In this document: positions 26,506-47,221 of the stretch, piece by piece | How the letters are laid out: every line of letters starts with the position of its first letter | How positions within the stretch are numbered: position 1 is the stretch's first letter | DNA from: Alphaproteobacteria bacterium | GTDB taxonomy: Bacteria > Pseudomonadota > Alphaproteobacteria > MPNO01 > UBA830 | Direction: 5' to 3' | Length of the DNA stretch: 64,000 nucleotides | Assembly (NCBI GenBank): GCA_038146925.1 | Contig: JAYQSP010000011.1 | Span: 42,816 to 106,815 of the forward strand | The notes under the pieces: generated by a model | Database searches by the model: none | The model's input: only the letters and a program-made list of their open reading frames with translations | Told to the model about the DNA's origin: nothing | Translations under genes and position numbers: made by a program

Positions 26506-26667
26506 GCGACCTACGAATGCTCGACCGACGCCGACATCGCGGCGTTCGCCGATATCGTCAACCGGGCCGGGTATTCGTCCCCTGTACGCACGCCGCGCGG
26601 GCGCGATATACTGGCGGCCTGCGGGCAGCTGAAAACCGCCAGCGAGCGGGAACGGAAAATCGCCTGA
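26506..26667 (+). CDS. C-terminal fragment (54 codons) of an unknown GC-rich gene, truncated at the junction.
   Basis: Open frame ...[55 protein letters not shown]3 codon bias matches the downstream genome. No start codon. Confidence 0.35.
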
Positions 26668-26691
26668 ACGAAAACAGACGGGTGAACGGCG

Positions 26692-27162: not shown

Positions 27163-27331
27163 TGCGTCATTCCCGCGAAGGCGGGAATCTCTATCAGGAC
27201 AGAACGGGCAAAAAGATCCCCGCCTGCGCGGGGATGACGGTTCAAAGGCGCCTTTAGTATGAACGTCCCCACCTTGCCGCGCCCGGCGGAATGCCTATAC
27301 TCCGCGCGCGCTAGAAATTAGGGAATATTCC

Positions 27332-28552
27332 ATGGCCGGACCAAGACCCGGAGAGGTCAATAAAATCGTGCTCGCCTATTCGGGCGGGCTGGATACATCC
27401 GTCATCCTGAAATGGCTGCAGCAGACTTATGACTGCGAGGTCGTCACCTTCACCGCCGATCTGGGGCAGGGCGAAGAGGTCGAACCGGCGCGGGCCAAGG
27501 CCGAAGCCGCGGGCGTGAAGGAAATCTATATCGATGATTTGCGCGAGGAATTCGTCCGCGATTTCGTGTTTCCGATGTTCCGGGCCAACGCGCTGTACGA
27601 AGGCATCTATCTGCTCGGCACCTCGATCGCCCGGCCGCTGATCTCCAAGCGCCAGATCGAAATCGCCCGTGAAACCGGCGCCGACGCCGTCAGCCACGGC
27701 GCTACCGGCAAGGGCAACGATCAGGTCCGGTTCGAACTTGGCTATTACGCGCTGGAACCCGATATCAAGGTCATCGCGCCGTGGCGCGAATGGGATCTCG
27801 ATTCCCGCACCAAGCTGATGGAATTCGCGCGAAACAACCAGATCCCGATCTCGCGCGACAAGATCGACGAGCCGCCCTATTCGACCGACGCCAATCTTCT
27901 GCATATTTCATACGAAGGAAAGGCGCTGGAAGATCCGTGGGTCGAGGCCGACGATGCGATGTACACGCGCTCCGTCTCCCCGGAAAACGCGCCCGACACA
28001 CCGACCTATATCGAGATCGAGTTCGAGGCGGGCGACGCGGTGGCGATCGACGGCGAAAAGATGTCGCCGGCGACCCTGCTGACCAAGCTGAACGAGCTCG
28101 GCGGCGCCAACGGGATCGGCCGGATCGATATCGTCGAAAACCGCTATGTCGGCATGAAGTCGCGCGGCGTCTACGAAACGCCCGGCGGCACGATCCTGGC
28201 CGCGGCCCATCGCGGGATCGAATCCCTCACGCTGGATCGCGGCGCCGCGCATCTGAAGGACGAGCTGATGCCGCGCTACGCGGAGCTGGTCTATAACGGG
28301 TTCTGGTTCTCGCCCGAGCGCGAAATGATCCAGGCGGCGGTCGACGAAAGCCAGAAGCACGTATCGGGCACCGTGCGGCTGAAACTGTTCAAGGGATCGG
28401 TCACCGTGGTGGGCCGCAAATCTCCGGTCAGCCTCTATTCCGAACAGCACGTCACATTCGAGGCCGACACCGTCTACGACCAGCGCGACGCCGAGGGCTT
28501 TATCAAGCTGAACGCCCTGCGTCTGCGGCTGATGAACGCCCGCAAGGGATGA
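27332..28552 (+). CDS. argG: Argininosuccinate synthase.
   Basis: 406 aa. PP-loop AYSGGLDTS. Conserved ...[13 protein letters not shown]..., ...[14 protein letters not shown]... Confidence 0.95.
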
Positions 28553-29430
28553 CGACCGGCACCGGGGTCGCCATGCCCCGGTTTCTGATCGCGGCCTGCT
28601 GGGCGTTGCTCGCGGCCGCCAGCTTCGCCGTGATGATGACGAGCGTCCGTTATATGGACGGCAAGTTCGATGCGTTCGAGATCGTGTTTTTCCGGGCGCT
28701 GATCGGTATCTTCCTGATTGTCCCGATCGTCTCGAAATCGGGATTTACGGCGCTCCGAACCGACCGGCTTCCGATGCACGTCGTGCGGACACTATTCGCG
28801 CTGTTCGCCATGGCGACGCTGTATTACGCGCTGGAATTCATTCCGGTCGCTCAGGCGGTCGCGCTGACCTTCCTGATTCCGCTGTTCACGACGATCGCCG
28901 CCGGTACGGTGCTGCGCGAAAAGGTCGGGCTACATCGCTGGGGCGCAACGCTGGTGGGCTTCGGCGGGGCGCTGATCATCATCCGCCCCGGTGTCGCCGA
29001 TATCAGCCTGCCGGTCCTGCTGGCGGTGCTGTCGTCGGCGCTCTATGCCGGCGCGTGGTCGAGCGTGAAGATTCTCACCCGGACCGATTCCGCCGCGGTT
29101 ACGGTGTTCTGGATGAACCTGCTGATGGTGCCGCTGACGGCGATCCCGCTGATTTTCGTCTGGGTCACGCCGGCCCCGGAGGATATCCTGCCTATCGCGA
29201 TCATGGCGCTGTCCGGCTGGGCGGCGCATTTCTGCCAGGCGCGGGCGTTCGAATCCGCCGATGCCAGCGCGGTCATGCCGTTCGATTTCCTGCGTCTGCC
29301 GCTGGGCGCGCTGTTCGGCTATTTCCTGTTCGCGGAGCTGGTCGACGGCTGGACCTGGGCCGGCGCAGTGGTGATCTTCCTGGCGGGCTATTACATCACC
29401 CGGCGCGAGGCCCTCCGGAAAGCTTCCTAG
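28549..29430 (+). CDS. EamA/DMT-family transporter.
   Basis: 293 aa, 10 TM. Two EamA-like halves. ATGA start/stop overlap with argG. Confidence 0.8.
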
Positions 29431-30122
29431 GCCGGGAACAGATGCATCCCGAACACGGTCTCGTGCACAAACAGAATGACGAGATAAAGCACGCTTCCCA
29501 GCGCCACCCGCCACCAGCCGACATCGCGCATCACCAGCGTGCGGCGGCCTTCGAGAATGGCGCGAAACGGCGTGCGGGACGTGCCTGCCCGGAACGATCG
29601 CCAGGCATCGTCCGCGTTGGCGTCGCGCCGCATGTCGATATGCACCATGCCCAGAGTCGAGAGCGCCAGCATGCCGCCGAAAAACAACACGGCGGCCAGA
29701 TCCCCCCGCACGAACAGATGCGCCAGCGACCATAGCGCGATGGCCGCCATCATCGGGTGGCGGACGATCGCGTATATGCCTTTGCCCGGCGCGTTCTCGT
29801 AATGCAGGTTGTCCATGCCCACCATCGTGGGGTTGCGGGTGGTGACGCTGCAAACGAAGAACACGGTGGCGAAATACATCAGGATCAGGATGACCGGCGG
29901 GCCCAGAATGCCGGCATTCCACAGCGGCACGTAGGGCGCGTCCATATAGGCGGTAATCATCCAGTACAACGCGGCAATCATCAGGACCGAGTAGACGCCG
30001 CGAAACGGCCTTTCGCCCATCATGCCGGTCAACGGGCCGCGCACCGGTGCGCTCGACAGCAGAAAATGACCGCCGGCGAAGGCGAGGGTCGCGAAGGCGA
30101 GGGTGATCAGGGCAGGGTCCAT
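29427..30122 (-). CDS. NnrU/ICMT-like family membrane protein.
   Basis: 231 aa. Polytopic. ...AIVRHPMMAA... motif typical of the NnrU/isoprenylcysteine-methyltransferase-like fold. Confidence 0.6.
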   Translation of the reverse strand: MDPALITLAFATLAFAGGHFLLSSAPVRGPLTGMMGERPFRGVYSVLMIAALYWMITAYMDAPYVPLWNAGILGPPVILILMYFATVFFVCSVTTRNPTMVGMDNLHYENAPGKGIYAIVRHPMMAAIALWSLAHLFVRGDLAAVLFFGGMLALSTLGMVHIDMRRDANADDAWRSFRAGTSRTPFRAILEGRRTLVMRDVGWWRVALGSVLYLVILFVHETVFGMHLFPA

Positions 30123-30137
30123 GCGTAACCCTACAAG

Positions 30138-31028
30138 CTAGATGTCGGGTACTTCAATTCCATTCTGGCGGCACGCGGCGACCAGTGTGTTGCGAAGCAG
30201 GCAGGCGATGGTCATCGGACCGACCCCGCCCGGTACCGGCGTGATGGCGCCCGCGTGTTTTACGGCCTCGTCGAATTCGACGTCGCCGACCAGACGCATT
30301 TTGCCTTCTTCCTCGGCCGGCACCCGGTTGATGCCGACGTCGATCACCGTGGCGCCCGGCTTGATCCAGTCGCCCCCGATCATCTGCGGGCGGCCGACGG
30401 CGGCGACCAGGATATCGGCCTCGCGGCAGACGCCGGGCAGGTCCCGGGTGCGCGAATGGGCGATGGTGACCGTGCAGTTGGCGTCGAGCAGCAGCTGCGC
30501 CATCGGTTTGCCGACAATGTTGGAGCGCCCCACCACGACCGCGTTCATCCCGGTAAGGTCGCCGAGGCGATCTTCTAGAAGCATGCGACAGCCCAGCGGC
30601 GTGCAGGGCACCATGCCGCCGCGCCCGGTCGCCAGCAGGCCCACATTGCGCAGATGGAATCCGTCGACATCCTTGGCGGGGTCGATGGCGTCGATGACCG
30701 AATTCGGGTCGATCTGGTCGGGCAGGGGCAGTTGCACCAGGATGCCGTGCACTGCCGGATCGGCGTTCAGCTTGTCGATGGCGGCCAGCAGGTCGGCCTG
30801 GGTCGTATCCGCCGGCAGCGTTTCGCCCAGCGACCGCATGCCGGCCTCGACCGTCTGTTTGTTCTTGTTGCGGACATAGACCTGGCTTGCCGGGTCTTCG
30901 CCGACCAGCACGGCGGCGAGGCCCGGCACGATGCCGTGTTCGGCGGTCAGCTTCGCGGTCTCGACGGCGATCCGTTCCCGCAGCCCCGCGGCGAACGCCT
31001 TGCCGTCGATGATATTGTAATTCGCCAT
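30138..31028 (-). CDS. folD: Bifunctional methylenetetrahydrofolate dehydrogenase/cyclohydrolase.
   Basis: The internal Met [16 protein letters not shown]... at 31028 gives 297 aa. Motifs ...YVRNK..., ...GILVQLPLP..., ...[12 protein letters not shown]... The track's 436-aa ORF is an upstream read-through extension. Confidence 0.92.
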
Positions 31029-31036
31029 TCGAAAAA

Positions 31037-31339
31037 TCAGGTCGCGATCCAGATATAGACCTGGCGCAATACGCCGTCCTTGATGAAGATCAGCAGCAGA
31101 ATGGCGATCAGCGGCGAGAAGTCGATCCCGCCGAAATTCGGCAGCATGTTGCGGATCGGCCGCAGGACGGGTTCGGTGATCCGGTACAGAAAATCGCCCA
31201 CCGTATAGACGAACCGGTTGCTGGTGTTGATCACGTTGAATGCGATCAGCCAGCTCAGAATCGCCGATATGATGAAACACCACATGTAGAGGTTCACGAC
31301 GACGTCGAGAAGATTGAAAAGGGTAGCGATCAGCTGCAT
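31037..31339 (-). CDS. YggT-family membrane protein.
   Basis: 100 aa from Met at 31339 ([20 protein letters not shown]...). Immediately upstream of folD. Confidence 0.7.
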
Positions 31340-31524
31340 GAAATGGTGCCTGTGAGTGTGAGGCCGCAGGGTAGCGGCGGCCCGATTCGCGTGCAAGCGG
31401 ATCGGCATCGGGTACGCGTTTCTCCTCTGTCCAACAATCTGCGGTCAAATCGTTTCAGATTGCTTGACAGGACCCCGCTTCCTACACATTATCCGCCCGC
31501 CCGATCCTCCGGGGTCGGCACCGT

Positions 31525-31600
31525 GGGGCCGTAGCTCAGCTGGGAGAGCGCTGCGTTCGCAATGCAGAGGTCGGGAGTTCGATCCTCCTCGGCTCCACCA
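31525..31600 (+). tRNA. tRNA-Ala (anticodon CGC).
   Basis: GGGGCCGTAGCTCAGCTGGGAGAGCGCTGCGTTCGCAATGCAGAGGTCGGGAGTTCGATCCTCCTCGGCTCCACCA. Has the G3:U70 pair. Anticodon loop TTCGCAA. T-arm GGTTCGATCC-like. Encoded CCA. Confidence 0.9.
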
Positions 31601-31641
31601 ACTCCTCTTGAAACGCCTGCAGGAGCGCCGGGACGGACAGG

Positions 31642-32079
31642 CTAGCCCAGCCCCGCCTTCCACCGGTCGGTCAGCCTGAACACAGTAAACGCCGCCGACC
31701 ACGCCATCATCAGCAGGCCGATCAGGGCCTCGAAGCCGCAGATCGTCCGCAGGTAGCCGGTCGGGACGATTTCGCCGTATCCCAGCGTGGTGTAATTGAC
31801 CAGCGAGATATAGAGATAGTCCCGCGCGCTGCCGTCGAATGCCCCGTCCAGCGTGCCGAGCTGCAGGATTTCCTGCCCGACATACAGCGCGCCGGCGAAC
31901 ACCCACACCTCGATCGAGTGCGCGAGGAAAAGCGTGAACACACCCACCAGCAGCCCGATGCGCACCGGCCAGCGCACCCGGTTCGCCAGCTTCGACATCA
32001 GGGTCATGATCTCGAAATGGATCAGGATGACGATCGCCGACGTCACCGCCGTCAGCAATGTCGCGACAATCATCTGCAT
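31642..32079 (-). CDS. Two-TM potassium-channel family protein.
   Basis: 145 aa. Selectivity-filter-like YTTLGYGE between two TM helices. Confidence 0.75.
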   Translation of the reverse strand: MQMIVATLLTAVTSAIVILIHFEIMTLMSKLANRVRWPVRIGLLVGVFTLFLAHSIEVWVFAGALYVGQEILQLGTLDGAFDGSARDYLYISLVNYTTLGYGEIVPTGYLRTICGFEALIGLLMMAWSAAFTVFRLTDRWKAGLG

Positions 32080-32117
32080 AGCCCCCTAACGTCCCGCTCT
32101 CGACAAGTGGACCAATA

Positions 32118-33626
32118 ATGAATAATCCAGAGCCCATGACAAGCGGATCCTTCACCGAACGCCACGGGTTGCGCGACGCGGCGCAGGCGGCGCTGGCGGA
32201 CGAGGTGCTGAAACAGGTCGAGGCCGACGGGCTGCAGCTGATCCGCCTTGCGTGGGCGGACCCGCACGGCGCGGCGCGGGCCAAGGCGGTGACGCCCGAT
32301 GCGTTCCGGGCGGCCATGGTCGACGGCTATAACATCAATGTCGCGACCTCGACGCTGGATGCGTCGGGTGGGCGCGTGTTCGCGAGTTTCGTGCCCGGCG
32401 GCGGCATGGGGCTGGCCGAAATGACGGGATCGCCCAACCTCGTCATCGTGCCCGACCCGGAAACGTTCCGCGTCCTGCCCTGGGCGCCCGGCGTGGGCTG
32501 GATCCTGTGCGACGAATATTTCCGCGACGGCACGCCGTTTCATTTCTCGACGCGGCATCTGTTGCGCAAGCAGGTCGCGCGGCTGGCGGACGCCGGCATG
32601 CGGCATGTCGTCGGCCTCGAGGTCGAATGGTATCTCGCCCATCTGACGCAGGACCGCCTGACGGCGGAAAACACCGGCGTTCCCGGCCGCCGCGGCCTTC
32701 CGCCTGAAACCGCGCCGCTCGAACCCGGATATTCCTATCACTCGGAAACCAATCTCGACGTGATGCAGCCGATGCTGAGCGCGCTGGCCGGCGCCTACAC
32801 GGACATCGGGCTGCCGCTGCGGTCGGTCGAAAACGAATACGGTCCCGGCCAGGTCGAATGCACGTTCACGGCGGACGACGCGATGCGCGCGGCCGACAAC
32901 TACGTTCTGTTCCGCACCGCGACGCGCCAGGTGTGCCGCCGTCAAGGGTATTTCGCGACATTCATGTGCCGCCCGGGACTGGCGGGGCATTTTTCAAGCG
33001 GCTGGCATCTGCACCAGTCGGTCGTCGGCGCGGCAAGCGACGAGAACCTTTTCACGCCGGGTACCGATGCGGATGCCCTGTCGGAAAAGGGCAGCGCCTT
33101 TCTTGCCGGTCTGCTCGACCACACGCTGCCCGCCACCGTGTTCGCGTCCCCCACCGTGAACGGTTTTCGCCGGTTTCAGCCGAATTCCCTGGCTCCGAAC
33201 CGGGCCACCTGGGGGACGGATCATCGCGGTGCCCTGATGCGCGTGATTTCAGCGTCGGGCGATCCGGCTTCGCGGATCGAGAACCGGGCGGGCGAACCGG
33301 CGGCCAATCCGTATCTGTTCATCGCTTCGCAGATCGCGGCGGGGCTCGATGGGATCGAACGCGGACTGTCCCTGGCCCCGCCCGACGACGCGCCCTACGA
33401 GTCCGACAAGCCGCTGCTGCCGGCGTCGCTGGCGGAGGGGCTGGAGGCGCTGGCGCAGGACGGCTTCTATCGCTCCGTTTTCGGCGATGTTTTCACGGAT
33501 TACTATCTCGGCCTGAAAAACGCCGAACTGGATCGCTACCGCCAATATTGCGAAGATGAAGGCATCGGCGAAAACGACGCCGACGTGACCGGGTGGGAGC
33601 AGAACGAATATTACGATTTCTTCTGA
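32118..33626 (+). CDS. Glutamine synthetase family protein (GS-like gamma-glutamyl ligase, GlnT/PuuA/TdnQ-like).
   Basis: 502 aa. GS catalytic-domain-like blocks ...GLEVEWY..., ...ENEYGPGQVE..., ...GWHLHQS... Adjacent to Rieske oxygenase genes. Confidence 0.8.
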   Translation: MNNPEPMTSGSFTERHGLRDAAQAALADEVLKQVEADGLQLIRLAWADPHGAARAKAVTPDAFRAAMVDGYNINVATSTLDASGGRVFASFVPGGGMGLAEMTGSPNLVIVPDPETFRVLPWAPGVGWILCDEYFRDGTPFHFSTRHLLRKQVARLADAGMRHVVGLEVEWYLAHLTQDRLTAENTGVPGRRGLPPETAPLEPGYSYHSETNLDVMQPMLSALAGAYTDIGLPLRSVENEYGPGQVECTFTADDAMRAADNYVLFRTATRQVCRRQGYFATFMCRPGLAGHFSSGWHLHQSVVGAASDENLFTPGTDADALSEKGSAFLAGLLDHTLPATVFASPTVNGFRRFQPNSLAPNRATWGTDHRGALMRVISASGDPASRIENRAGEPAANPYLFIASQIAAGLDGIERGLSLAPPDDAPYESDKPLLPASLAEGLEALAQDGFYRSVFGDVFTDYYLGLKNAELDRYRQYCEDEGIGENDADVTGWEQNEYYDFF

Positions 33627-33665
33627 TCCCCGCGGCACCGCCGGAAACCGCGAGGACCGCGTGAC

Positions 33666-35033
33666 ATGGACGGACTGACACCGACACCCGACAGCCGCCT
33701 CGACGGCTACGATTTCGACTACCTGATCCAGGAGGATCGGGTTCATCGCCATATCTATACGGAGGAGCCGATTTTCCGCGCCGAGATGACGCGCGTCTTC
33801 GGCGCCGTCTGGGTGTATCTCGGCCATGAAAGCGAAATTCCGGACAACGACGATTTCGTCCAGACCTGGCTGGGCCTGCGGCCGATCATCCTGGTCCGCG
33901 ATTCCGACGGGAATATCCGCGCGCTCTACAATCGGTGCACCCATCGCGGGTCCACCGTCTGCCGCCGACAATCAGGATCGGCAAAGGCGTTCCAGTGTCC
34001 GTATCACGGCTGGACATTTCGCAACAACGGCGAAATCACCGGCGTCCCCTGGCCGGAAGGCTATGCCGACGATTTTTCCGATTCCAAGTTCAACCTGGCG
34101 CAGGTGCCGCGGGTCGATTCCTACAAGGGCTTCGTTTTCGGCACGCTGAACATGGCGGCGCCGTCGCTGATGGACTATCTCGGCCCCGTCGCAAAACCGC
34201 TCGCCGAATGGGTCGACCGGCATCCCGGCGGGAAGGTCGCGCTCTGCAATGCGAACCGTCTCAAGCTGCACGGCAACTGGAAGCTGGTCTACGACAATTC
34301 GGCGGACGGCTATCATGTCGTCTTTTCGCACCGCTCGCTGCTGGCCATGGAGAACCGCCTGTCCGAGGAGGGCGACAAGGGCATGGCTTTCTACAAGGAA
34401 AGCCCCGATACGGCGCCCATGTACGTCTACTATTTCGGCAACGGCCATCACTTCAAGGACAAGCGCGGCAATGTGGAACGCGACAAGCCCGGCGCGCTGT
34501 GGGAGATAGAGGGCGTCGCGCCGGGGATGGAATATTTCGAGGACAAGCTGCGCCGCGAACATCCCGGCCGCGCGGACGAATTCCTCGATCTCGCCGCGTC
34601 CGAGCCGATGAACATCAATGTGTTTCCCAATCTGCACATCCTCGGCAACCACATCCAGGTCGTGCGGCCGATTTCGGTGACCGAAACCGACACCACCTGG
34701 TGGGGCACGGCGGTGGTCGACGACGAGGGGGTGCTGGACGGGGCGGTCGACGATATCAACGCCATCCGGATGCGGACACAGGAAGGCTTTCCCAATTTCG
34801 GCGAAGTCGACGACCTGATGAATTTCGAACAGATCCAGGTCGGGCTGCAGGCGGAAGAGGACGAATGGGCCTATACCCATCGCGGCCTGGGACTTCCGGA
34901 CAGGTTTTCGGTCGACGAAGCCGGCACGATCAAGGGACCGGCGACGGACGAGGTTTTCCTGCGCGAATACTTCAGGGAATATCGCCGCCTGATGACGACG
35001 CGTCCCGATATCCAGATCGCGCGGGAGGTGTGA
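33666..35033 (+). CDS. Rieske non-heme iron ring-hydroxylating oxygenase, alpha subunit.
   Basis: 455 aa. Rieske CTHRG-x15-CPYHGW. Mononuclear iron ...DNSADGYHVVFSH... Confidence 0.9.
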   Translation: MDGLTPTPDSRLDGYDFDYLIQEDRVHRHIYTEEPIFRAEMTRVFGAVWVYLGHESEIPDNDDFVQTWLGLRPIILVRDSDGNIRALYNRCTHRGSTVCRRQSGSAKAFQCPYHGWTFRNNGEITGVPWPEGYADDFSDSKFNLAQVPRVDSYKGFVFGTLNMAAPSLMDYLGPVAKPLAEWVDRHPGGKVALCNANRLKLHGNWKLVYDNSADGYHVVFSHRSLLAMENRLSEEGDKGMAFYKESPDTAPMYVYYFGNGHHFKDKRGNVERDKPGALWEIEGVAPGMEYFEDKLRREHPGRADEFLDLAASEPMNINVFPNLHILGNHIQVVRPISVTETDTTWWGTAVVDDEGVLDGAVDDINAIRMRTQEGFPNFGEVDDLMNFEQIQVGLQAEEDEWAYTHRGLGLPDRFSVDEAGTIKGPATDEVFLREYFREYRRLMTTRPDIQIAREV

Positions 35034-35040
35034 TCCGGTC

Positions 35041-35622
35041 ATGAACGCGAACCCGGCCCGGACGTCTTACTATGTTGACGATGATTTCTACGCGGACCTG
35101 ACGGCCGCGTTTTCGGATTGGCAGTCGGAGGAGGCGGAGATCGCCGATCCGGCCCGGCGCGATGAATTCCGCCGCCTGCTGGAGCGCGAGGCGCGCCTGC
35201 TGGAACAGGACCGCCACGCCGACTGGCTGGCCATGTACGCGCCGGAATGCCTGTACTGGGTACCCGCGTCGGCGGATGGCGGCGACCCGAAACGGGAGGT
35301 CGCGATCGCCTTCGACGACCGGCGCCGGCTCGAGGACCGGGTGTACCGGCTGGGCACCGACTATGCCTGGTCGCAGCAGCCGCCGTCGCGCACCAGCCGG
35401 ATCGTGTCCAACGTCGCCGCCTTCGAAACTGCCGACGATGCGGTCGTCATGATCCGGTCGAATTTTCTGATCACCGAATTCCAGGCGGGGGATTACCGGA
35501 CATGGGCCGGCTGGGCAGGGCACCGTCTGCGGCGGAACGGCGATGGATGGGAAATCCTGGTCAAGCAGGTCAACCTGATCAATTACGACCAGAACCTCCG
35601 CAATCCGAGCATCACGCTTTAG
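35041..35622 (+). CDS. Ring-hydroxylating dioxygenase beta subunit (SnoaL-like fold).
   Basis: 193 aa, 8 nt after the alpha subunit. Beta-subunit-like ...ECLYWVPAS..., ...RIVSNV... Confidence 0.8.
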   Translation: MNANPARTSYYVDDDFYADLTAAFSDWQSEEAEIADPARRDEFRRLLEREARLLEQDRHADWLAMYAPECLYWVPASADGGDPKREVAIAFDDRRRLEDRVYRLGTDYAWSQQPPSRTSRIVSNVAAFETADDAVVMIRSNFLITEFQAGDYRTWAGWAGHRLRRNGDGWEILVKQVNLINYDQNLRNPSITL

Positions 35623-35650
35623 CCGGTCTTTTCAGCGAAGATCGGGAATG

Positions 35651-35680
35651 AAAAAAGGCGGCTCACCGAGCCGCCTTTCT
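35651..35680. terminator. Bidirectional rho-independent terminator.
   Basis: AAAAAAGGCGGCTCaccGAGCCGCCTTTCT: 8-bp GC stem flanked by an A-run and a T-run. Lies between convergent genes. Confidence 0.6.
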
Positions 35681-35700
35681 CATGTTTTCTTTTCCGTCCT

Positions 35701-36153
35701 TCAGGACATGCCGTCCAGATCGCCGATGACCTGGCCGGGATGATCCGCCGGCGTCACCTCGTCATAGGCGGCGGCGACTGTTCCGTCCGGCCCGATCAGC
35801 ACGGATTTGCGCGGCGAGCGCGGGCTGTCCGGTTCCGAAACGCCGAAGGCGACGGAAACAGCGCCGTCCTCGTCGCTGAGGAGGTCGTAGGGGAAAGAGA
35901 ATTTGTCGCGAAACGCGCCATTGTCCGCCGGGCTGTCGTAGGAAACGCCGACGATGGATGCGTTGCGGTCTTCGAAGTCCTGGATTCGATCACGGAACCC
36001 GTTGCCTTCGATGGTTCAGCCGGGTGTGTCGGCTTTGGGATACCACCAGAGCAGGACGTAGCGACCGGCGAAGTCGTCTTTTTTCACCGTCTTACCGTCC
36101 TGGTTCGGGAGGCTGAAATCCGGCGCTTCCGCGCCGGAGGCAATTAAGGCCAT
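35701..36153 (-). CDS. bcp: Bcp/PrxQ-type peroxiredoxin with in-frame TGA (candidate selenocysteine) at the peroxidatic Cys position, codon 45 (TGA 36016-36018).
   Basis: Minus-strand translation: MALIASGAEAPDFSLPNQDGKTVKKDDFAGRYVLLWWYPKADTPG[TGA]TIEGNGFRDRIQDFEDRNASIVGVSYDSPADNGAFRDKFSFPYDLLSDEDGAVSVAFGV...IGPDGTVAAAYDEV...*. Matches E. coli Bcp ...YFYPKAMTPGCT...DNM... GGAG RBS 9 nt upstream of the ATG. No other stops in frame. Confidence 0.6.
35971..36011 (-). promoter_or_regulatory. Candidate bacterial SECIS-like hairpin immediately 3' of the in-frame UGA.
   Basis: mRNA UGA-ACCA-UCGAAGG-CAACG-GGUUC-CGUGAUC-GAAUC-CAGGA-CUUCGA. Outer stem UCGAAG/CUUCGA, inner stem GGUUC/GAAUC, apical loop CGUGAUC containing GU. 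Confidence 0.35.
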
Positions 36154-36225
36154 TCAGGTTGCTCCATTCGATGTATCGTACCGGAGAAGTATATCATCTG
36201 GTGACCGACTCCGACATAGCGGCAT

Positions 36226-36256
36226 AAAAAAACCCGGCGCGGGGCGCCGGGTTTTT
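36226..36256. terminator. Rho-independent terminator (bidirectional).
   Basis: AAAAAAACCCGGCGCggggCGCCGGGTTTTT. Downstream of the small zinc-ribbon gene. Confidence 0.7.
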
Positions 36257-36274
36257 AACTTATCGATCGGTAGA

Positions 36275-36454
36275 TCAGACGAAATCGGGCTCGCTGCGTT
36301 TGCGGCAGCGCAGGCACAGGCGGTTGTGCCAGCCTTCGCTCGCGAATTTCTCGCCGCACGACATGCAGGGTCGCTCGGTGGGTACATCGCTCACCGCGCG
36401 ATGGTCCATCACCAGTTCTTCAGCTTCCAGCGAGCTTGTGTTCGATTCGCTCAT
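36275..36454 (-). CDS. Small zinc-ribbon protein (CxxC...CxxC), hypothetical.
   Basis: 59 aa: MSESNTSSLEAEELVMDHRAVSDVPTERPCMSCGEKFASEGWHNRLCLRCRKRSEPDFV. GGGAG RBS. Below the 60-aa track cutoff. Followed by a strong terminator. Confidence 0.45.
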   Translation of the reverse strand: MSESNTSSLEAEELVMDHRAVSDVPTERPCMSCGEKFASEGWHNRLCLRCRKRSEPDFV

Positions 36455-36815
36455 CTAATGGCTCCCTCTTCGTAATTGATTACGACGTAATCGTCAGTTG
36501 TCCCAACCACCGTTGCGGTGGCACCAATTTTTACGCTCTTCGGCGATTTGCCTCCCGCAAACCCGCTTTTTGAAAGCACTTTTCCGTGAGGTAGCCCTTC
36601 CGGATACCTCCGTGCCGGCGGTTATTACGGTTTGATTACTTCCCCATCCTTGCCTGCGCGAGCGGAAACGGACTTCCCGCCCGGAAGGGGGCCGCGTCGG
36701 GTGTTATGCCCCGATTTCGTCGATCCCCAATACTTAGTATTCTAACATATTCCGTCGGGAAATGGGTAATGAATCCGTCATCTCGAGGGCATTTTCCGCG
36801 TATGCAACGGAGCGT

Positions 36816-36846
36816 GCGGAATCGCGCGGATTCTGCGCGATTCCGC
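36816..36846. other. Perfect 12-bp inverted repeat (GCGGAATCGCGC-ggattct-GCGCGATTCCGC) in the 400-bp intergenic region downstream of the GlcG-like gene.
   Basis: Read directly from the sequence. No U-tract, so this is more REP/operator-like than terminator-like. Confidence 0.4.
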
Positions 36847-36861
36847 CTTGGCCCGGGCTAA

Positions 36862-37284
36862 TCAGAAAGATTGGCTTCCCGGAATGGCGGCGATCGCCGC
36901 GGTCGCGACCTCGCGATCCTGTTCTCCCGTGCCCGATCCGACGCCCACTCCGCCGATACAGTGGCCGTCAACGATGATGGGCAGGCCGCCCGGCAGATTG
37001 ATGCGCTGTCCGTCCGTGCCAAGAGCCAGCTTGATGTCGACGCCTTCCATGAGCCCGCCCGAAGGGTCGCCGTAGCAGGCCGCCGTGCGGGCCTTGCGCA
37101 GCGACGTTTCCAGCGACATGTGAAAGGCGCCGTCCATGCGGACGAACGCCAGAAGGTTGCCGCCGTTGTCGACCACCGAGATGCATTGCGGCTGACCCAT
37201 ATCGGCCGCTTTGGCGATACCAGCGTTCAGCGCGGCAAGCGCCCCTTCATGCGTGAGTTTCAGAAACTGCGCCGTTTCGGCCAT
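36862..37284 (-). CDS. GlcG/HbpS-like (DUF336) heme-binding-domain protein.
   Basis: 140 aa. ...ISVVDNGGNLLAFVRMDGA..., ...IVDGHCIGGVGVSGG... family-like blocks. Confidence 0.75.
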   Translation of the reverse strand: MAETAQFLKLTHEGALAALNAGIAKAADMGQPQCISVVDNGGNLLAFVRMDGAFHMSLETSLRKARTAACYGDPSGGLMEGVDIKLALGTDGQRINLPGGLPIIVDGHCIGGVGVGSGTGEQDREVATAAIAAIPGSQSF

Positions 37285-37401
37285 GACCTTTTCCCTCTGA
37301 ATTCGAATAGACCGCAGTTTTTCAGGTCACGCGCCGGCACGCAACCACCCGTGCGAACACGGGTGCGAATTCCGATCAAAACAAGGGAGAAAATATCCGG
37401 A

Positions 37402-38106
37402 TCAGGCCTTGCGACGACGGGAAAACGCGCGACCCGCCATCAGGAGGCCGCCGATCACCAGCGACGGCGTCAACGCGGGCTCGGGTATGTCCGTGGTCGG
37501 TTTGAACCCGCTTTCAAGCACCGAGTTGAAGCTCGAATTCTGGCCGCCGGCGGCATGGGTAATCGTCGCGACGGTGGTCAGGGAGTAGAGACCGGTCAGC
37601 GCCTCGGCGCCGACATCGACGAACACGAAACCGCCGGTCAGGGCGCCGGAATCGAAGAGCGCTATATCCCGCGCGAAACCGGTGTTGGCGGCGGAGGCGA
37701 AATGTTCGAACTGGACCGTATCCGCGGTGACGCCGCCGATTTCCGTCGAGAAGTTGACGGTCGGTCCGCCGGACAAAAAATCGGTTTCGGTAAACTCGAT
37801 CGTCAGGATGCCGCCCGCGGCGCCAGTGACATCAATGGAATTCAAATCCAGAACCGGATCGGTCGGGCTGCCGAGCAGCGGTTTTGTGATCCCTGTCGTG
37901 ACGTTGACGCTGAAATCGCCGATTGCGCCGTTGAAGACCACGACGCCGGCCAGGGGATTGATATCGCCTGCGCCGCCATCGGTGACGGTCACCGTGTTAA
38001 TACCGTCGGAAAGCCGGAGCTGGGGCACCGCATGCGCCGGAACGGACACTGCGGAGGCCGCAAGGGCCGCCAGTCCGATCAGCAGATGTTTCTTTATGCG
38101 GTTCAT
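37402..38106 (-). CDS. PEP-CTERM sorting-domain secreted protein (exosortase substrate).
   Basis: 234 aa. Signal peptide. C-terminal ...IPEPALTPSLVIGGLLMAGRAFSRRRKA (PEP motif, TM helix, basic tail). Confidence 0.8.
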   Translation of the reverse strand: MNRIKKHLLIGLAALAASAVSVPAHAVPQLRLSDGINTVTVTDGGAGDINPLAGVVVFNGAIGDFSVNVTTGITKPLLGSPTDPVLDLNSIDVTGAAGGILTIEFTETDFLSGGPTVNFSTEIGGVTADTVQFEHFASAANTGFARDIALFDSGALTGGFVFVDVGAEALTGLYSLTTVATITHAAGGQNSSFNSVLESGFKPTTDIPEPALTPSLVIGGLLMAGRAFSRRRKA

Positions 38107-38341
38107 GTCGATCTCTTCGAAACACGTCGGAAAAACTAAACTTGTTACGCGAGACTCAAACTACTGCCATGGTTAATGCAATTATCGTGCCAGATTCGAT
38201 GAATCCGGGTATTTCAATAGGTTATGGTGCTGCCGGACTCCCGTGGCGTTAACCATTGTAAAAAATTCCGACAGGGATCCCATGCATTCCAAATGCGCTC
38301 GACAGTCCGGGAATCCCCTGAGTTCCAGGGCTTTCAGCGGA

Positions 38342-39556
38342 TCAGGAAGCGGGTGCGGGGTCCGGCGCCTCGACGGGGCGGTCGTCGATGCACCAGTGAA
38401 TAAGAGCCGCCGCCGCGGACAGCCCGATCGCCAGCCACCAGGCGGCGTCGTAAGTCCCGAACATGTCGTAAAACAGCCCGCCCAGGAACACGCCCGAAAA
38501 CGCTCCCAGCTGGTGGCTCAGAAAAACGATGGCGAACAGCGTGCTCATATAACGGGGGCCGAACACCTGCGCGACGATTCCGCTGGTCAACGGCACCGTC
38601 GACAGCCACAGCAGCCCGAGAATCGCACTGAAGCCGATGACCGTGATCTCGTTCACCGGCAGGTACAGAAACACGAGAAACAGCAGGCCCCGGGCAAGAT
38701 AAAGCTGGCTCAGCAGGTTCCGCTTGCGCCACCGCCCGCCCGCCCAGCCGGCGATAATGGTGCCGAACAGGTTGAATAGTCCGATGGTGCTGATCGCCGC
38801 TGCGGCCAGCCAGGCGCCGGCGCCGGAATCGGTCAGGAATTTGGGCAGGTGCGTGCCGACGAACTGCACCTGAAATCCGCAGACGAAAAATCCGATCACC
38901 AGCAGCCAGTACCCGCGATGATGGCTCGCTCTCTTCAGGGCGCTGCCGAGGGTTTCCGTATCCGGTTTGGAAAACGCCACTGCGCCGGCGGACCGCATCG
39001 ACCAGGCCAACGGCACCGCGACGGCGACGATAAGGGCGAGAATGACGATTCCGCCTGCCCAGCCGAACCCGTCGATCAGGCCCTTGCTCGTCAGGGCGAA
39101 GGCGAACTGCCCGGCGGAGCCGCCGGCCGTTACGATGCCGAGCCAGAACGTGCGCGATTTTTCCGGTGCGACCCTGCCGACAATCCCCAGCGGCAGGGTC
39201 AGCCCCACGCCCGAGGCACCGATGCCGACGATCAGCCCGGCGGACAGATACATCGTTCCCGGCGTCACCGAGACGGAAATCAGGGCGACCCCGGTGGCGT
39301 ACAGCCCGGCGGCCAGCGCGATCACGGTCGTCGGGCGCATCCAGCGGTCGGCGAGCGCCCCGGTGAAGGGCGCGGCAATGCCCATGATCAGGTTCTGAAT
39401 GGCGATGGCGGTTGCGAATTCCGTAACGCCCCATTTCAGATCAGTGCTGATCGGTTCGAGAAACAGGCCGAAACTTTGCCGCGACCCGTTGGCGATCAGC
39501 ACGATCGCGGTTGCGGCAAACAGGATGTATACGGGAGATCGCCAGAAAGCCTTCAT
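38342..39556 (-). CDS. MFS transporter.
   Basis: 404 aa, 12 TM. The antisense and alternate-frame ORFs here are Arg-rich shadows. Confidence 0.85.
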   Translation of the reverse strand: MKAFWRSPVYILFAATAIVLIANGSRQSFGLFLEPISTDLKWGVTEFATAIAIQNLIMGIAAPFTGALADRWMRPTTVIALAAGLYATGVALISVSVTPGTMYLSAGLIVGIGASGVGLTLPLGIVGRVAPEKSRTFWLGIVTAGGSAGQFAFALTSKGLIDGFGWAGGIVILALIVAVAVPLAWSMRSAGAVAFSKPDTETLGSALKRASHHRGYWLLVIGFFVCGFQVQFVGTHLPKFLTDSGAGAWLAAAAISTIGLFNLFGTIIAGWAGGRWRKRNLLSQLYLARGLLFLVFLYLPVNEITVIGFSAILGLLWLSTVPLTSGIVAQVFGPRYMSTLFAIVFLSHQLGAFSGVFLGGLFYDMFGTYDAAWWLAIGLSAAAALIHWCIDDRPVEAPDPAPAS

Positions 39557-39630
39557 GGGCAGAGTGTCCGTTTCAGATCGTCCGCTTCGGGTCTTCGATC
39601 ACACTATAGTTGCCGGAAGCGAGGCCGCAA

Positions 39631-40794
39631 TCAGCCGTTGCCGCGCTCCAGCGTGTGGATCTCGGCAGCGGGAGCGATTTCGTCGACGTCGGGACCTTCG
39701 CCCAGCTCGATCAGTTCTATCTTTTCGCCGCGGCTGGTGACTTTGTTGGTCGATGTGCGGATCTTGCCGATGTCTTCCTGCGCCTGGCGGAAATGGGTCT
39801 GGAGCTTGTCCACCCTTTCGTCGATCCGCCCGACATCGACCAGCATCTTGCGGACTTCTGTCTGGATGAGGCCGGCCTGCTCCTGCATGGATGCGTCTTT
39901 CAGCACGGCGCGGACCGTGTTCAGCGTCGCCATCAGGGTCGTCGGAGACACGATCCACACCCGGGCGCGATAGGATTTCTCCACCGTCTCGGGATGATTG
40001 GCATAAAGCTCGGCATAGACGGCTTCGGACGGCAGGAACATCAGCGCGGATTCGGCGGTTTCGCCCGGAATGATATAGCGGTCGGCAATATCGCGGACGT
40101 GTTTCAGCACGTCGGCCGCAAAGGCCCGTGCATACTGCGCCCTGCCGGCGTCGTCCTTTGCGGCCCGCAGCAAATGATAGCTTTCCAGCGGAAATTTGGC
40201 GTCGATTGCGATGGCGCCGGGCGGATTCGGCAGATTGAGTACGCAGTCCGCGCGCTTGTTGTTGCCCAGCGTTTTCTGGAATTCGTAAGCCGATGGCGGC
40301 AGGGCCGCCTGCACCAGGTCCTGCAGTTGGATTTCGCCGAAGGCGCCGCGAGCCTGCCGGTTGGTCAGCACGTCCTGCAGCTGCACCACCTGCGCCGACA
40401 GGTCGGTGATGTTTTTCTGGGCCGCGTCGATCACCGCCAGCCGCTCCTGCAGTTTGGTCATCGTCTCCGATGATTTCGTACTGGTCTGCTGCAGGCTGTC
40501 GCCAACTTTTTTCGTCACGTCGGCGAGGCGTTCTTCCAAAGTCTTGGTGATCGCGATTTCCTGGTTCTGGAGACGTTCCGACAGCGCCTTCTGGCTGGCG
40601 GCATCGGCTTCCGCGATCTGTGACAGGCGGCCTGCCAGTTCCGCCTGCTGCGCGGCCAGTCGTTCGGTCGTCTGCGCGATGTCTGCGGACGCGTCCCGCT
40701 TGCCGCTCCGCAGCAGAACGAATGCGGCGAGCGCCAGCGCTCCTGCGGCGACAACCAGCGCGATGATCGTGATCGGATCCATGTAGCGGAACAT
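39631..40794 (-). CDS. rmuC: DNA recombination protein RmuC.
   Basis: 387 aa. N-terminal TM, long coiled coil and a C-terminal RmuC domain (...FLPSEAVYAEL...). The true start may be the second Met at 40782. Confidence 0.88.
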   Translation of the reverse strand: MFRYMDPITIIALVVAAGALALAAFVLLRSGKRDASADIAQTTERLAAQQAELAGRLSQIAEADAASQKALSERLQNQEIAITKTLEERLADVTKKVGDSLQQTSTKSSETMTKLQERLAVIDAAQKNITDLSAQVVQLQDVLTNRQARGAFGEIQLQDLVQAALPPSAYEFQKTLGNNKRADCVLNLPNPPGAIAIDAKFPLESYHLLRAAKDDAGRAQYARAFAADVLKHVRDIADRYIIPGETAESALMFLPSEAVYAELYANHPETVEKSYRARVWIVSPTTLMATLNTVRAVLKDASMQEQAGLIQTEVRKMLVDVGRIDERVDKLQTHFRQAQEDIGKIRTSTNKVTSRGEKIELIELGEGPDVDEIAPAAEIHTLERGNG

Positions 40795-40907
40795 ATCACG
40801 AACTTTTCCGAATCGGTCCGCGCAACCCGACCGGACAACGTGATGCTTGACCCTGCGGGGCCGAACGCATACCTAACCCCGGACCGATACTTAGGAAACC
40901 GAGCCCG

Positions 40908-41444
40908 ATGGCCTTGCTGCCCATCATCACCGCCCCCGATCCGCGCCTTAAAAGGGTCGCGACGCCTGTCGAATCCGTCGACGACGACGTGCGACGACTG
41001 ATGGACGACATGCTGGAAACCATGTACGCCGCGCCGGGCGTCGGGCTGGCTGCGCCGCAGGTCGGCGTACTGAAACGGGTGATCGTCGCCGATGTTGCCC
41101 GGACCGGCGAAGAACCGCAGCCGATGTGCCTGGCAAACCCGGAAATCGTCGGCGCTTCCGAAGAGATTTCCGTGTTCGAGGAGGGTTGCCTGTCGTTGCC
41201 GGAACACTTTGCCGAGGTGAAACGGCCTGACAAGGTGCGGATCCGGTATCTGGATTACGAAAACGAAATCCGCGAACAGGATATGGACGGTTTTCTGGCG
41301 ACCTGCATCCAGCACGAGATCGATCACCTCGACGGCGTACTGTTCGTCGACCGCATCTCCAGCCTGAAGCGCGGCATGATCCTGCGCAAACTGACGAAGC
41401 TCAAAAAAGCCGACGCCAAGGCCGCCGAAAAAGCGGGCGTCTGA
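40908..41444 (+). CDS. def: Peptide deformylase.
   Basis: 178 aa. [13 protein letters not shown] and HEIDHL motifs. Confidence 0.95.
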
Positions 41445-41455
41445 GGGGTTTCCCG

Positions 41456-42361
41456 ATGCGGGTCGTATTCATGGGCACACCCGATTTTTCCGTGTCCGCG
41501 CTGGCGGCGCTGATCGAGGCCGGTCACGAGATCGTCTGCGTTTATTCCCAGCCGCCCCGTCCGGCCGGGCGCGGTCACAGGGAAAAGCCGTCGCCGGTTC
41601 AGGCATTCGCGGAATCGAAGGGTCTCGCCGTTCGATATCCGGTCAGCCTCAAAGACGCAGAGGCCCAGGCGGATTTCGCGGCGCTCGACGCGGATGTCGC
41701 CGTTGTCGCGGCCTACGGGTTGATCCTGCCCAGGCCTGTCCTGGAGGCGCCCCGTCTGGGATGCATAAACATCCACGCGTCCCTCCTTCCCCGGTGGCGC
41801 GGTGCCGCGCCGATCCAGCGGGCCATTCTGGCGGGCGATACGGAAACCGGGATTACCATCATGCAGATGGACGAAGGGCTCGATACCGGCCCGATGCTGG
41901 CGGCCGAAGCCGTGCCGATTACCGGCAGCACCACGGCATCGGGCCTGCACGATGCACTGGCCGATATCGGCGGACGTCTGATCGTCGACGTGCTGTCGGG
42001 CGACCTGCCCCCCGCCGTGCCGCAACCGGAAGAGGGCGTCACCTATGCGGCCAAACTCGACCGTGCCGAGGGTCGCATCGACTGGACCGAAAGCGCGGCC
42101 GCCCTCGATCGTCGGGTGCGGGCGCTGAACCCCTGGCCCGGTGTCTGGTGCGAACGCGACGGCGAGCGCCTGAGGATACTGGCGGCCACTCCGGTGGACG
42201 GGAACGGAGATCCCGGAACCGTCATCGCCGAGCCCCTCACCATCGCGTGCGGCGACGGTGCATTGAAGGTCGAGCGGGTCCAGCGCGCCGGGAAATCGGC
42301 CATGCCGGCGGCCGATTACGCGCGCGGCAATCCGGCGGCGGTCGGCGCCGTTCTCTCATGA
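41456..42361 (+). CDS. fmt: Methionyl-tRNA formyltransferase.
   Basis: 301 aa. ...FMGTPDF..., ...[20 protein letters not shown]... Confidence 0.95.
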
Positions 42362-43134
42362 CCCGCTGGAAACTGACCGTCGAATATGACGGCGGCAGTT
42401 ACGCCGGCTGGCAACGCCAGGACAACGGCCCGTCGATCCAGCAATCTATGGAAGAGGCCGTGTTCCGGTTTTGCGGCGAGGAGGCGCGCGTACACGGTTC
42501 CGGGCGGACGGATGCGGGCGTTCATGCGATTGCACAGGTTGCGCATGTCGATATCGAAAAGGACACGGACGCCCATACGGTCCGCGAAGCGCTGAATGCC
42601 CACATGCGCGAGGAACAGATCGTCGTGACGGAGGCAGTGGCGGTTTCGGACGATTTCCACGCCCGGGTTTCCGCCGTGGAACGTTCCTATCTGTATCGCA
42701 TCCTGAACCGCCGGCCGCGCCCGGCGCTCGATGCAGGGCGGGTCTGGCACGTGCCTTTGCCGCTGGACGTCACTGTCATGCACGATGCCGCGCAGGTGCT
42801 GGTCGGCCGTCACGACTTCACCAGTTTCCGCGCGGCGATGTGCCAGGCGAAATCGCCGGTGCGGACACTGGACGAACTGCGCGTTACCCGGGCGGGCGAC
42901 GAAATACACATTCATGCGCGCGCCCGGTCGTTCCTCCACCATCAGATACGTAACTTCGCGGGGACGCTGGAATTGGTCGGGGCGGGAAAATGGACGGCGG
43001 CAGACGTCGCCTCGGCGCTCGATGCGAAGGATCGTTCCGCCGCCGGGCCCACGGCGCCGCCGGACGGTCTGTATCTCGTGTCCGTCAAATATCCCGAAAC
43101 GGAATCCGGTCAGGCGCCCGCGGATCCCGCATAA
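42358..43134 (+). CDS. truA: tRNA pseudouridine(38-40) synthase.
   Basis: 258 aa starting [21 protein letters not shown]. The ATGA overlaps the fmt stop. ...[11 protein letters not shown]... catalytic Asp. Confidence 0.92.
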
Positions 43135-43694
43135 AACGACTGCGTGATCACGTTGAGCGCCAGGGCCACCACCAGATCGATGGCGACGATCATAACGGCG
43201 GCAGGCGCCCGTATTTCCAGCGTGGAGACCGCGATAAACCCCTGATAGACAAGGATCGCGCCGACCGCGATCAGGCTGACGAAGCCTGACACCTGACCTG
43301 GCATCATACCGCTCGCGATCAGGGCGCTGATGGCGAGAAACAGGAACACCTGCAGGACGATGGCCCAGTTCCAGGCCGTCATGAAACGGTAGTAACGGTC
43401 GAACCGGTTCAGCGTATCGGTCAGGGCGATCATGATCAGCGGAAAAATCACCCAGCCGATGACATATGCGGAAGATTCCACGACCAGGATGCGAAACCCC
43501 GAGGCATTGACCGGGTTTTCCGCAAAGTTAAGGAGCACCAGCAGCGCGTAGGCTGGCAGGGCTATCGCCGCCGCATAGAACGATCGCCAGAACGCTTCCG
43601 GTGTGTTGTCGAAATACTGCGCCGCGGCGCGGTCGAATTTGGCGAACTGGCAGGCCCCGTATATCGACAGCGCGACCTCCCGGCTGGTGATCAT
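43110..43694 (-). CDS. Hypothetical polytopic membrane protein.
   Basis: 194 aa, 5 TM. Convergent 25-nt overlap with the end of truA. Confidence 0.5.
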
Positions 43695-47169: not shown

Positions 47170-47221
47170 TGCAGGACCCGCAGGTTCTCCACAGGGGGGT
47201 GCCGCCTGGAATGATAACGCT

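Follow-up and report, generated by a model that had tools for sequence, protein, structure and literature searches.

The stretch of DNA analysed here (the window) comprises 64,000 nucleotides (nt) of contig JAYQSP010000011.1 from an uncultured alphaproteobacterium. On its minus strand lies a gene for a peroxiredoxin of the Bcp/PrxQ type, whose reading frame contains one internal UGA codon. The hairpin that follows this codon in the mRNA is very probably a functional bacterial selenocysteine insertion sequence (bSECIS) within the coding region, and we read the UGA as the codon for a selenocysteine (Sec, U) that takes the place of the peroxidatic cysteine (Cys). An earlier note on the window had proposed a SECIS-like structure of two stems at this site. 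The SECIS-like reading is supported by synonymous sites that are frozen in the TGA forms of the gene, by loss of the hairpin in old Cys forms, by compensatory stems in divergent Sec forms and by the fit to the published consensus. The two stems fared differently: the inner hairpin is strongly supported, whereas the outer stem is weak, is mostly a by-product of the codons and is also found in Cys forms.

The in-frame UGA and the encoded peroxiredoxin

The open reading frame (ORF; 36153..35701, minus strand) starts with an ATG at 36153, stops with the TGA at 35703..35701 and, read directly from the sequence, has a single internal in-frame TGA. Read-through yields a product of 150 residues with Sec at residue 46, in the motif PKADTPG-U-T; the sequence around the Sec is MALIASGAEAPDFSLPNQDGKTVKKDDFAGRYVLLWWYPKADTPG-U-TIEGNGFRDRIQDFEDRN... 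The protein matches the Pfam family AhpC-TSA (PF00578) with E = 8.9e-32, and Redoxin also matches. Its best NCBIfam matches are the Bcp/PrxQ thiol-peroxidase models, yet it scores under their equivalog cutoffs. Residue 46 was aligned to the Cys of YPKxxTPGCT in the solved Bcp/PrxQ chains 5enu and 2cx3, and the U of P-K-A-D-T-P-G-U was also aligned to the Cys of Cys-containing homologues (P0064, P0090 and others). The UGA thus aligns to the Cys of the PxxxTxxC motif, which is the peroxidatic cysteine. The translation contains no Cys anywhere, so that residue 46 is the sole candidate redox residue and there is no resolving Cys. Judged from its sequence, the protein would be a “1-Sec” peroxiredoxin that needs an external thiol for recycling.

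A genome scan, with one genome per species of the GTDB, retrieved 80 loci spanning the whole protein, and in every one of these (80/80) the homologous codon is TGA, with WWYPKAD(T/P)(P/R)G-TGA-T as its context. The encoded proteins are 57–92% identical to that of the window, and nearly all derive from uncultured marine Alphaproteobacteria or from metagenome-assembled genomes of Rhodospirillaceae; the closest genome match is UBA7314, at 91% protein identity. Two complete chromosomes, OZ251539.1 and OZ244055.1, are among the sequences with an orthologue. A second scan, of metagenomes, took as its query an alignment of Cys forms, which carry TGC at the homologous codon. Despite this query, 77 of the 80 metagenome loci were of the TGA form. 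We considered the possibility of a global reassignment of UGA, which is ruled out because TGA also terminates the peroxiredoxin gene itself and is the most frequent stop around it (33 of the 64 window ORFs with high GC content at third codon positions). Since relatives conserve the internal TGA and UGA acts as an ordinary stop elsewhere, this comparative evidence excludes a reassigned genetic code as well as a pseudogene or a sequencing error.

The apparently full-length homologues in the protein database read TPGWT, in which the W is UGA rendered as Trp by gene callers under another genetic code; the rest are C-terminal fragments of 83–103 amino acids, carrying names such as “redoxin domain-containing protein” or “peroxiredoxin”. 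The misfiled entries are P0001-P0062, P0028 and P0081-P0112, and the Trp versions come from short contigs.

Synonymous conservation of the inner hairpin

The window and the 80 genome loci together form an unselected set of 81 sequences, referred to below as the marine clade. In this set, the 19 nt of the inner hairpin, GGR-UUC-CGU-GAY-MGA-AUC-C, are frozen at synonymous sites, while the choice among synonymous codons is free in the remainder of the gene. The Phe at codon +7 is TTC and the Ile at codon +11 is ATC in 81/81 sequences, and the Arg at codon +8 is CGT in 81/81 though six codons are available. The remaining codons of the segment each appear in two forms: GGG (71) or GGA (10) for the Gly at +6, GAT (74) or GAC (7) for the Asp at +9, and CGA (53) or AGA (28) for the Arg at +10. 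Elsewhere in the same genes, codon entropy is about 0.8–1.0 bit for Phe, 2.1–2.2 for Arg, 1.3–1.9 for Gly and about 1.1 for Ile. Among the 62 conserved degenerate codon columns of the whole-gene codon alignment, the five lowest relative entropies all lie in +6 to +11. The mean relative codon entropy is 0.18 in this segment, compared to 0.83 elsewhere (Mann–Whitney p = 4e-5), and the lowest value outside it is 0.38.

The 19-mer GGRTTCCGTGAYMGAATCC has a single copy in the window, where 0.10 would be expected even at three mismatches, and it is found once each in 130 related loci, with its start always lying 18 nt beyond the T of TGA. A dispersed repeat or repetitive extragenic palindromic (REP)-like element was ruled out by the uniqueness of the 19-mer in the window.

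In the following, positions are counted from the U of the UGA as position 1, so that a position n corresponds to window coordinate 36019 − n. In the marine clade, the stem is frozen and does not covary, because every synonymous site pairs with a base that is fixed by the protein: G21 pairs with U35, C24 with G32, A33 with U23 and C36 with G20, where U35, G32, U23 and G20 are the second bases of the Ile, Arg, Phe and Gly codons, respectively. The sole variant tolerated in the stem is a change of G21 to A, by which the G-U pair becomes A-U. Within the loop, all of 138 unique TGA forms have G26, G28 and A29. Positions 30 (U/C) and 31 (C/A), which are loop positions 6 and 7, vary freely, and U27, the third base of its Arg codon, never varies.

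The Cys forms provide the control for this conservation. The codons in place of +6 to +9 are GGT TTC CGG GAT in L082, GGT TTT CGA GAC in L158, GGC TTC CGC GAC in L163 and L164 and again in L166, and ACC TTT CGC GAT in L165, which has T-F-R-D instead of G-F-R-D. Five independent older Cys forms make just 1–4 of the six inner pairs. This use of other codons for the same peptide in older Cys forms means that the amino-acid sequence does not force the hairpin. The earlier note had named, as an outcome that would speak against it, that the hairpin bases are simply constrained by the codons of the conserved FRDRIQDFE. The inner hairpin instead shows selection at the RNA level, its synonymous sites being frozen in 81/81 sequences and free in the older Cys forms, which argues for a function of the RNA itself.

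Predicted structure of the hairpin

RNAfold returned the two-stem structure as both the minimum free energy (MFE) fold and the centroid for segments of 63 nt and 44 nt, at −13.1 kcal/mol. The inner stem pairs G19-C24 (36000..35995) with G32-C37 (35987..35982), giving 6 base pairs (bp) with one G-U, and the outer stem pairs U8-G13 (36011..36006) with C42-A47 (35977..35972). The internal loop between the stems has 5 nt on its 5′ side and 4 nt on its 3′ side. The core hairpin starts 15 nt after the UGA, and 21 nt (positions 4–24) separate the UGA from the apical loop, in which G26-U27 (35993..35992) follow the UGA as nt 23 and 24. The earlier note had given the sequence and coordinates of the hairpin after the in-frame UGA correctly (in the minus-strand reading). 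Its outer stem UCGAAG/CUUCGA of 6 bp is exactly that returned by RNAfold in both segments, and the sequence and the fold both confirm its 7-nt loop CGUGAUC with a GU at 23–24 nt after the UGA. The inner stem is likewise present in the MFE fold, except that it has 6 bp including one G-U, not 5 bp.

Pairing was counted in the 138 unique TGA sequences, which were not selected for structure. The two-helix structure is 87.7% paired in this set, compared to 13–57% when the 3′ partners were slid, and for the inner helix the figure is 90.0%. At pair 22-34, 125 sequences have UA, 3 have CG and 2 have UG; at pair 21-35, 100 have GU, 16 AU, 6 GC and 1 CG. RNAalifold on the 81 genome-level sequences recovered the inner hairpin and four outer pairs, and the inner hairpin was present in 79/81 of the single-sequence MFE folds.

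Some divergent Sec forms keep the stem with altered bases. In L127 and L142, the stem is GGGCUC/GAGCCC, and the replacement of F by L together with that of I by A converts U22-A34 to C-G. The stem of L159 is GGCUUC/GAAGCC, in which G21-U35 becomes C-G, and that of L147 is GGGUUC/GAGCCC. In L161, the stem GGCCUG/CAGGCC encloses a 6-nt loop, with the 3′ arm one nt nearer; this sequence forms 6 bp in its own register and 3/6 pairs in the fixed register.

The outer stem

The outer helix is 85.4% paired across the 138 sequences, with the two outermost pairs broken in 35 and 50 of them, and RNAalifold retained 4/6 outer pairs in the 81 sequences. The four central pairs (G10-C45, A11-U44, A12-U43 and G13-C42) are built from the codons of the invariant E-G and D-F. 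These codons allow variation by G-U wobble only, and the central pairs are therefore uninformative either way. Pair 9-46 is C-G in 65 sequences and U-A in 19, an association with an odds ratio of 9.5 (Fisher p = 3.7e-5, phylogeny ignored) that gives a hint of selection on the outer stem. The outer-stem sequence (AUCGAAG...GACUUCGA) is also kept in the Cys forms L082, L158, L163 and L166.

The outer stem begins 4 nt after the UGA and would therefore be inside the ribosome, and melted, while the UGA occupies the A site. This follows from the footprint of the ribosome on the mRNA and from the result in Escherichia coli that the upper stem-loop alone suffices. We conclude from the sequence comparisons that the inner hairpin is probably the functional core and that the outer stem is presumably incidental or auxiliary, being largely a by-product of the I-E-G...D-F-E codons. 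At most, it aids folding beforehand.

Consensus rules and proposed mechanism

The bacterial SECIS consensus was taken from PMC13188914, which summarises Zhang and Gladyshev's bSECISearch model. According to that summary, the loop has 3–9 nt, the upper stem 4–16 bp, the distance from UGA to loop is 16–37 nt and the MFE is at most −7.5 kcal/mol; a G stands at either the first or the second loop position and is usually followed by G or U (PMC13188914). In the window, the core occupies nt 19–37 and the whole hairpin nt 8–47, counted from the U of the in-frame UGA. The loop has 7 nt and begins C-G-U, so that its second position is the G and its third the U; the upper stem has 6 bp, the spacing is 21 nt and the MFE of −13.1 kcal/mol lies below the limit. 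The consensus is descriptive and permissive, however, and a fit to it is necessary but not specific, as the Cys forms also fold stably.

In the mechanism that we propose, the UGA at 36018..36016 would enter the ribosomal A site while the 19-nt hairpin GGGUUC-CGUGAUC-GAAUCC, 15 nt downstream, is still folded at the mRNA entrance. SelB, carrying guanosine triphosphate and Sec-tRNA(Sec), would bind the hairpin through loop nucleotides G26-U27, which we infer to be its contact, and would deliver Sec in competition with release factor 2. The product would be a peroxiredoxin with Sec as the peroxidatic residue and no Cys. This scheme presumes SelB binding and Sec insertion, and with them the presence of selA, selB, selC and selD in the source genome.

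Evidence against a SECIS function and alternative explanations

A number of results weigh against reading the hairpin as a functional bSECIS. The first concern its folding energy. The 63-nt fold is no stabler than shuffled sequences (z = +0.30, with 118/200 shuffles at least as good), and the 44-nt fold gave z = −1.22 (24/200 at least as good). In a context of 141 nt, the structure is missing from the MFE fold, in which the outer arms pair elsewhere (z = −0.03), and all that the centroid retains is the inner hairpin, shortened to 5 bp. The Cys-form homologues L082, L158, L163 and L166 (nt 4–51 after TGC) fold at −12 to −15 kcal/mol. Because the z-scores are near those of shuffles and the Cys forms are equally stable, thermodynamic significance was dropped as a criterion. 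The stable fold that the earlier note had expected from RNAfold was found, but its energy does not discriminate against shuffles or Cys forms, and folding energy 3′ of the UGA cannot alone tell a SECIS in the Sec-peroxiredoxin family. On energy alone, the hairpin is no more than would be expected by chance in GC-rich coding sequence; it is the comparative evidence that makes it non-random.

The covariation signal is also limited. RNAalifold gave no covariation bonus within the marine clade (81 sequences), and with the mixed alignment of the 138 TGA forms it gave no consensus structure, because two architectures are mixed in that alignment (see below). Double-sided compensatory changes are few, with 4 cells in the inner helix, and the shuffle and Fisher tests ignore phylogeny. 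Thus, of the compensatory changes in orthologues that had been suggested as a check, those in divergent Sec forms do keep the stem, but they are few, and within the marine clade there is no bonus from RNAalifold.

No SECIS family was among the 29 Rfam matches at E ≤ 10 in 35600..36300. The comparison with bSECIS models is therefore divided, with agreement for the published consensus rules (PMC13188914) and no match at E ≤ 10 for the Rfam covariance models. In the window as a whole, nothing except tRNA reached the Rfam gathering score. The fdhF SECIS of E. coli has a bulged U17, which E. coli SelB needs, whereas the inner stem in the window is a continuous 6 bp with no bulge. Finally, selA, selB, selD and tRNA-Sec were not found in the 37.5 kb of sequence from the same genome (ARAGORN; Pfam, 30 ORFs), and the Sec-decoding trait of the source organism is assumed.

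The Rfam matches near 36228–36268 and 35648–35772 are terminator-like hairpins that fit parts of unrelated small RNA models. The stem also has a likeness to a tRNA T-arm (GGGUUC...GAAUCC compared with GGTTCGAATCC); ARAGORN finds no tRNA there, and we deemed the likeness a coincidence.

The alternative that survives best is that the structure has another role in the RNA, such as Sec-independent read-through, ribosome pausing or mRNA stability or regulation, with the UGA read by a near-cognate tRNA for Trp or Cys. Structures 3′ of stop codons promote read-through in other systems, and such a role would suit both the missing Sec machinery in the 37.5 kb and the missing Rfam match. However, the UGA falls precisely where a thiol peroxidase has its redox-active Cys, which is the signature of a Sec/Cys pair. 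A Trp at residue 46 would inactivate the enzyme, while the conversion of TGA to TGC in L081 (see below) shows Cys as a functional equivalent. Furthermore, the geometry and the loop G-U match the bSECIS consensus (PMC13188914), and the family has been listed among the selenoproteins (PMC1088965, PMC2398784). We therefore consider this alternative improbable.

Lower still we rate the chance that the hairpin is a passive by-product of codon bias and the conserved peptide G-F-R-D-R-I-Q-D-F-E, lacking any function at the RNA level. The first and second positions of the stem codons are indeed fixed by invariant amino acids, the outer-stem sequence occurs in Cys forms as well, and neither the comparison with shuffles nor RNAalifold in the marine clade distinguishes the hairpin from such a by-product. 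What a by-product would leave unexplained is that the third positions, which are free of protein constraint, are invariant in the hairpin segment only, and only in TGA forms. CGT is used in 81/81 sequences here, against 2.1–2.2 bits for Arg in other parts of these genes; TTC and ATC do not change in the hairpin, although other Phe and Ile codons vary; and Cys forms with the same peptide choose other codons. Pairing is also kept when residues change, as where F to L and I to A together give C-G for U-A. The last alternative, a genuine stop in a pseudogene, a split gene or an erroneous sequence, to which the hairpin would be irrelevant, agrees with the public annotations that store orthologues as C-terminal fragments of 83–103 amino acids, but is effectively refuted by conservation, since the same TGA codon is present in 157 independent related sequences with the frame intact on both sides, the residues are strongly conserved across the UGA and a frozen hairpin lies immediately 3′ of it.

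Comparison with known selenoproteins and SECIS elements

A bSECIS in this gene would be of a kind already known. The Sec-containing peroxiredoxin family (Sec-Prx; COG1225/pfam00578, motif TxxU) is abundant in the sea and has been described since 2005; two metagenomic surveys report it with 43 Sargasso Sea genes, all with a predicted bacterial SECIS (PMC1088965), and with 253 genes in 34 samples of the Global Ocean Sampling data (PMC2398784). The window gene shares with this family the AhpC-TSA fold of Bcp/PrxQ type, the T-x-x-U motif, the peroxidatic Sec and the origin from marine bacteria, as well as a coding-region stem-loop that directly follows the UGA and carries a G in its small apical loop. 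It fits the described family on every feature tested, with no difference of kind, and represents a further locus in an uncultured high-GC alphaproteobacterial lineage. The near-invariant 19-nt hairpin and the second architecture described below do not appear to be spelled out in PMC1088965 and PMC2398784. We regard three observations as mildly new: the near-invariant 19-nt hairpin explained by interlocking codon and pairing constraints, the second hairpin architecture, and the fossil hairpin behind the TGC of L081.

The main consequence is one of annotation: the gene would encode a full-length and probably highly active selenoenzyme, as judged from its sequence, and not a truncated “redoxin domain protein”. 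The 19-mer, 15 nt after the TGA, is a simple and specific marker of Sec-peroxiredoxin genes of the marine clade, and its presence implies a selenium dependence of these uncultured marine alphaproteobacteria. Knowledge of Sec decoding itself is unchanged by the window hairpin.

The SelB-binding hairpin of E. coli fdhF was reportedly defined by experiment in the Bock laboratory. Both fdhF and the window have a hairpin in the coding region with G-U in the loop, at G23/U24 in fdhF and at G26/U27 in the window, so that the window GU is one codon further from the UGA. The loop has 7 nt in the window and 4–6 nt in fdhF. The upper stem-loop is the functional core in fdhF, where the lower stem is dispensable, and would be so in the window. 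PrxU of Eubacterium acidaminophilum (NF040737) shares with the window protein a peroxidatic Sec in a peroxiredoxin. It belongs to a different subfamily, however, being a Sec-containing enzyme of the 2-Cys type of about 230 residues, whereas the window protein is of the Bcp/PrxQ type with 150. Identity with PrxU was rejected, as the window protein scored 47.2 bits compared to the NF040737 cutoff of 270.

A second hairpin architecture and a TGC convert

A group of divergent TGA forms from metagenome contigs, the WFYPKADTPGU clade, has a different hairpin, GGUNGCGG-GUU-CCGCNACC, at nt 13–31 after the TGA. It comprises loci L111, L120, L122, L124, L125, L131, L133, L134, L136, L143, L146, L148, L150, L151, L155, L157, L160 and L162; the pairing count, on 19 sequences, also took in L121. 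The same GGGUUC forms the centre of this hairpin, whose GUU triloop, 17 nt after the UGA, presents G21-U22. It is 92.8% paired, compared to 41–49% in slid controls, and includes one swap between GC and CG, at pair 17-27. In the marine clade, by comparison, GGGUUC pairs with GAAUCC and G26-U27 lie in a 7-nt loop, whereas in the WFYPKADTPGU clade GGUNGCGG pairs with CCGCNACC and G21-U22 lie in the triloop. It is conceivable, although we would not rate it as likely, that one orthologous Sec-peroxiredoxin family has two SECIS architectures on a shared GGGUUCCG core. If the two architectures are real and undescribed, they would offer a natural series for the shift of a SECIS register under protein-coding constraint.

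We also considered for the marine clade itself an ACGG-GUU-CCGU fold, resembling that of the WFYPKADTPGU clade. It was rejected, since it needs a codon +5 that ends in C or U, which is true in only about 60% of the sequences, and it would leave the conserved GAUCGAAUCC unexplained.

One locus, L081:254-310 (ENA ERZ27300294, contig k119_170300), has TGC followed by an intact hairpin, GGG TTC CGT GAT AGA ATC C. The simplest reading is a very recent conversion of TGA to TGC that left a fossil SECIS; a sequencing variant on this 590-nt contig is possible. If the conversion is true, converts of this type would also inform on the speed of SECIS decay after replacement of Sec by Cys.

Genomic context

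The features identified around the peroxiredoxin gene are listed in Table 1.

Table 1. Features of the peroxiredoxin gene and its surroundings, in window coordinates.
Feature	Position	Strand	Basis
Bcp/PrxQ-type peroxiredoxin selenoprotein gene (predicted)	35701..36153	minus	translation, Pfam, NCBIfam, structure alignment
In-frame UGA, read as Sec codon replacing the peroxidatic Cys	36018..36016	minus	homologous-codon comparison
Core hairpin of the probable SECIS, stem GGGUUC/GAAUCC	35982..36000	minus	MFE fold and comparative evidence
Apical loop CGUGAUC, C25-C31	35988..35994	minus	MFE fold; Arg codon conservation
Outer-stem 5′ arm UCGAAG, U8-G13; auxiliary or incidental	36006..36011	minus	short-context MFE
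Outer-stem 3′ arm CUUCGA, C42-A47	35972..35977	minus	short-context MFE
Shine-Dalgarno-like GGAG, 8 nt 5′ of the ATG at 36153	36162..36165	minus	read from sequence
GC-rich palindromic hairpin with U-runs on both strands	35654..35678	unassigned	terminator scan

A promoter scan found no sigma-70-like promoter upstream of the peroxiredoxin gene. Downstream, the hairpin at 35654..35678 (minus-strand reading AGGCGGCUCGGUGAGCCGCCUUUUUU, in the cmscan alignment) separates the gene from its convergent neighbours, the genes for the alpha and beta subunits of a Rieske dioxygenase at 33666..35622 on the plus strand. It is likely a bidirectional terminator that makes the peroxiredoxin gene monocistronic. 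A second GC-rich palindromic hairpin with U/A runs on both sides, at 36228..36258, lies between the peroxiredoxin gene and a small upstream ORF, and both hairpins look like bidirectional intrinsic terminators. The small ORF (36275..36454, minus strand), a putative gene, encodes 59 amino acids with a zinc-ribbon-like CxxC...CxxC pattern (PCMSCGEKF...LCLRCRK) and has no Pfam match.

The composition of the window is composite, with a GC content of about 30–39% up to roughly 26.5 kb and of about 60–65% beyond. The step is abrupt, less than 100 nt wide near 26,505–26,510, and the high-GC part (26,510..64,000) starts in the middle of an ORF. The window has the appearance of a chimeric assembly, or of two unrelated contigs joined at their ends, and only the region of 26.5–64 kb, the 37.5 kb of same-genome sequence referred to above, is a valid genomic context for the peroxiredoxin gene. 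The only tRNA in this region is a tRNA-Ala, and its housekeeping genes include argG, folD, def, fmt, dapD, dapE, argB and yidC.

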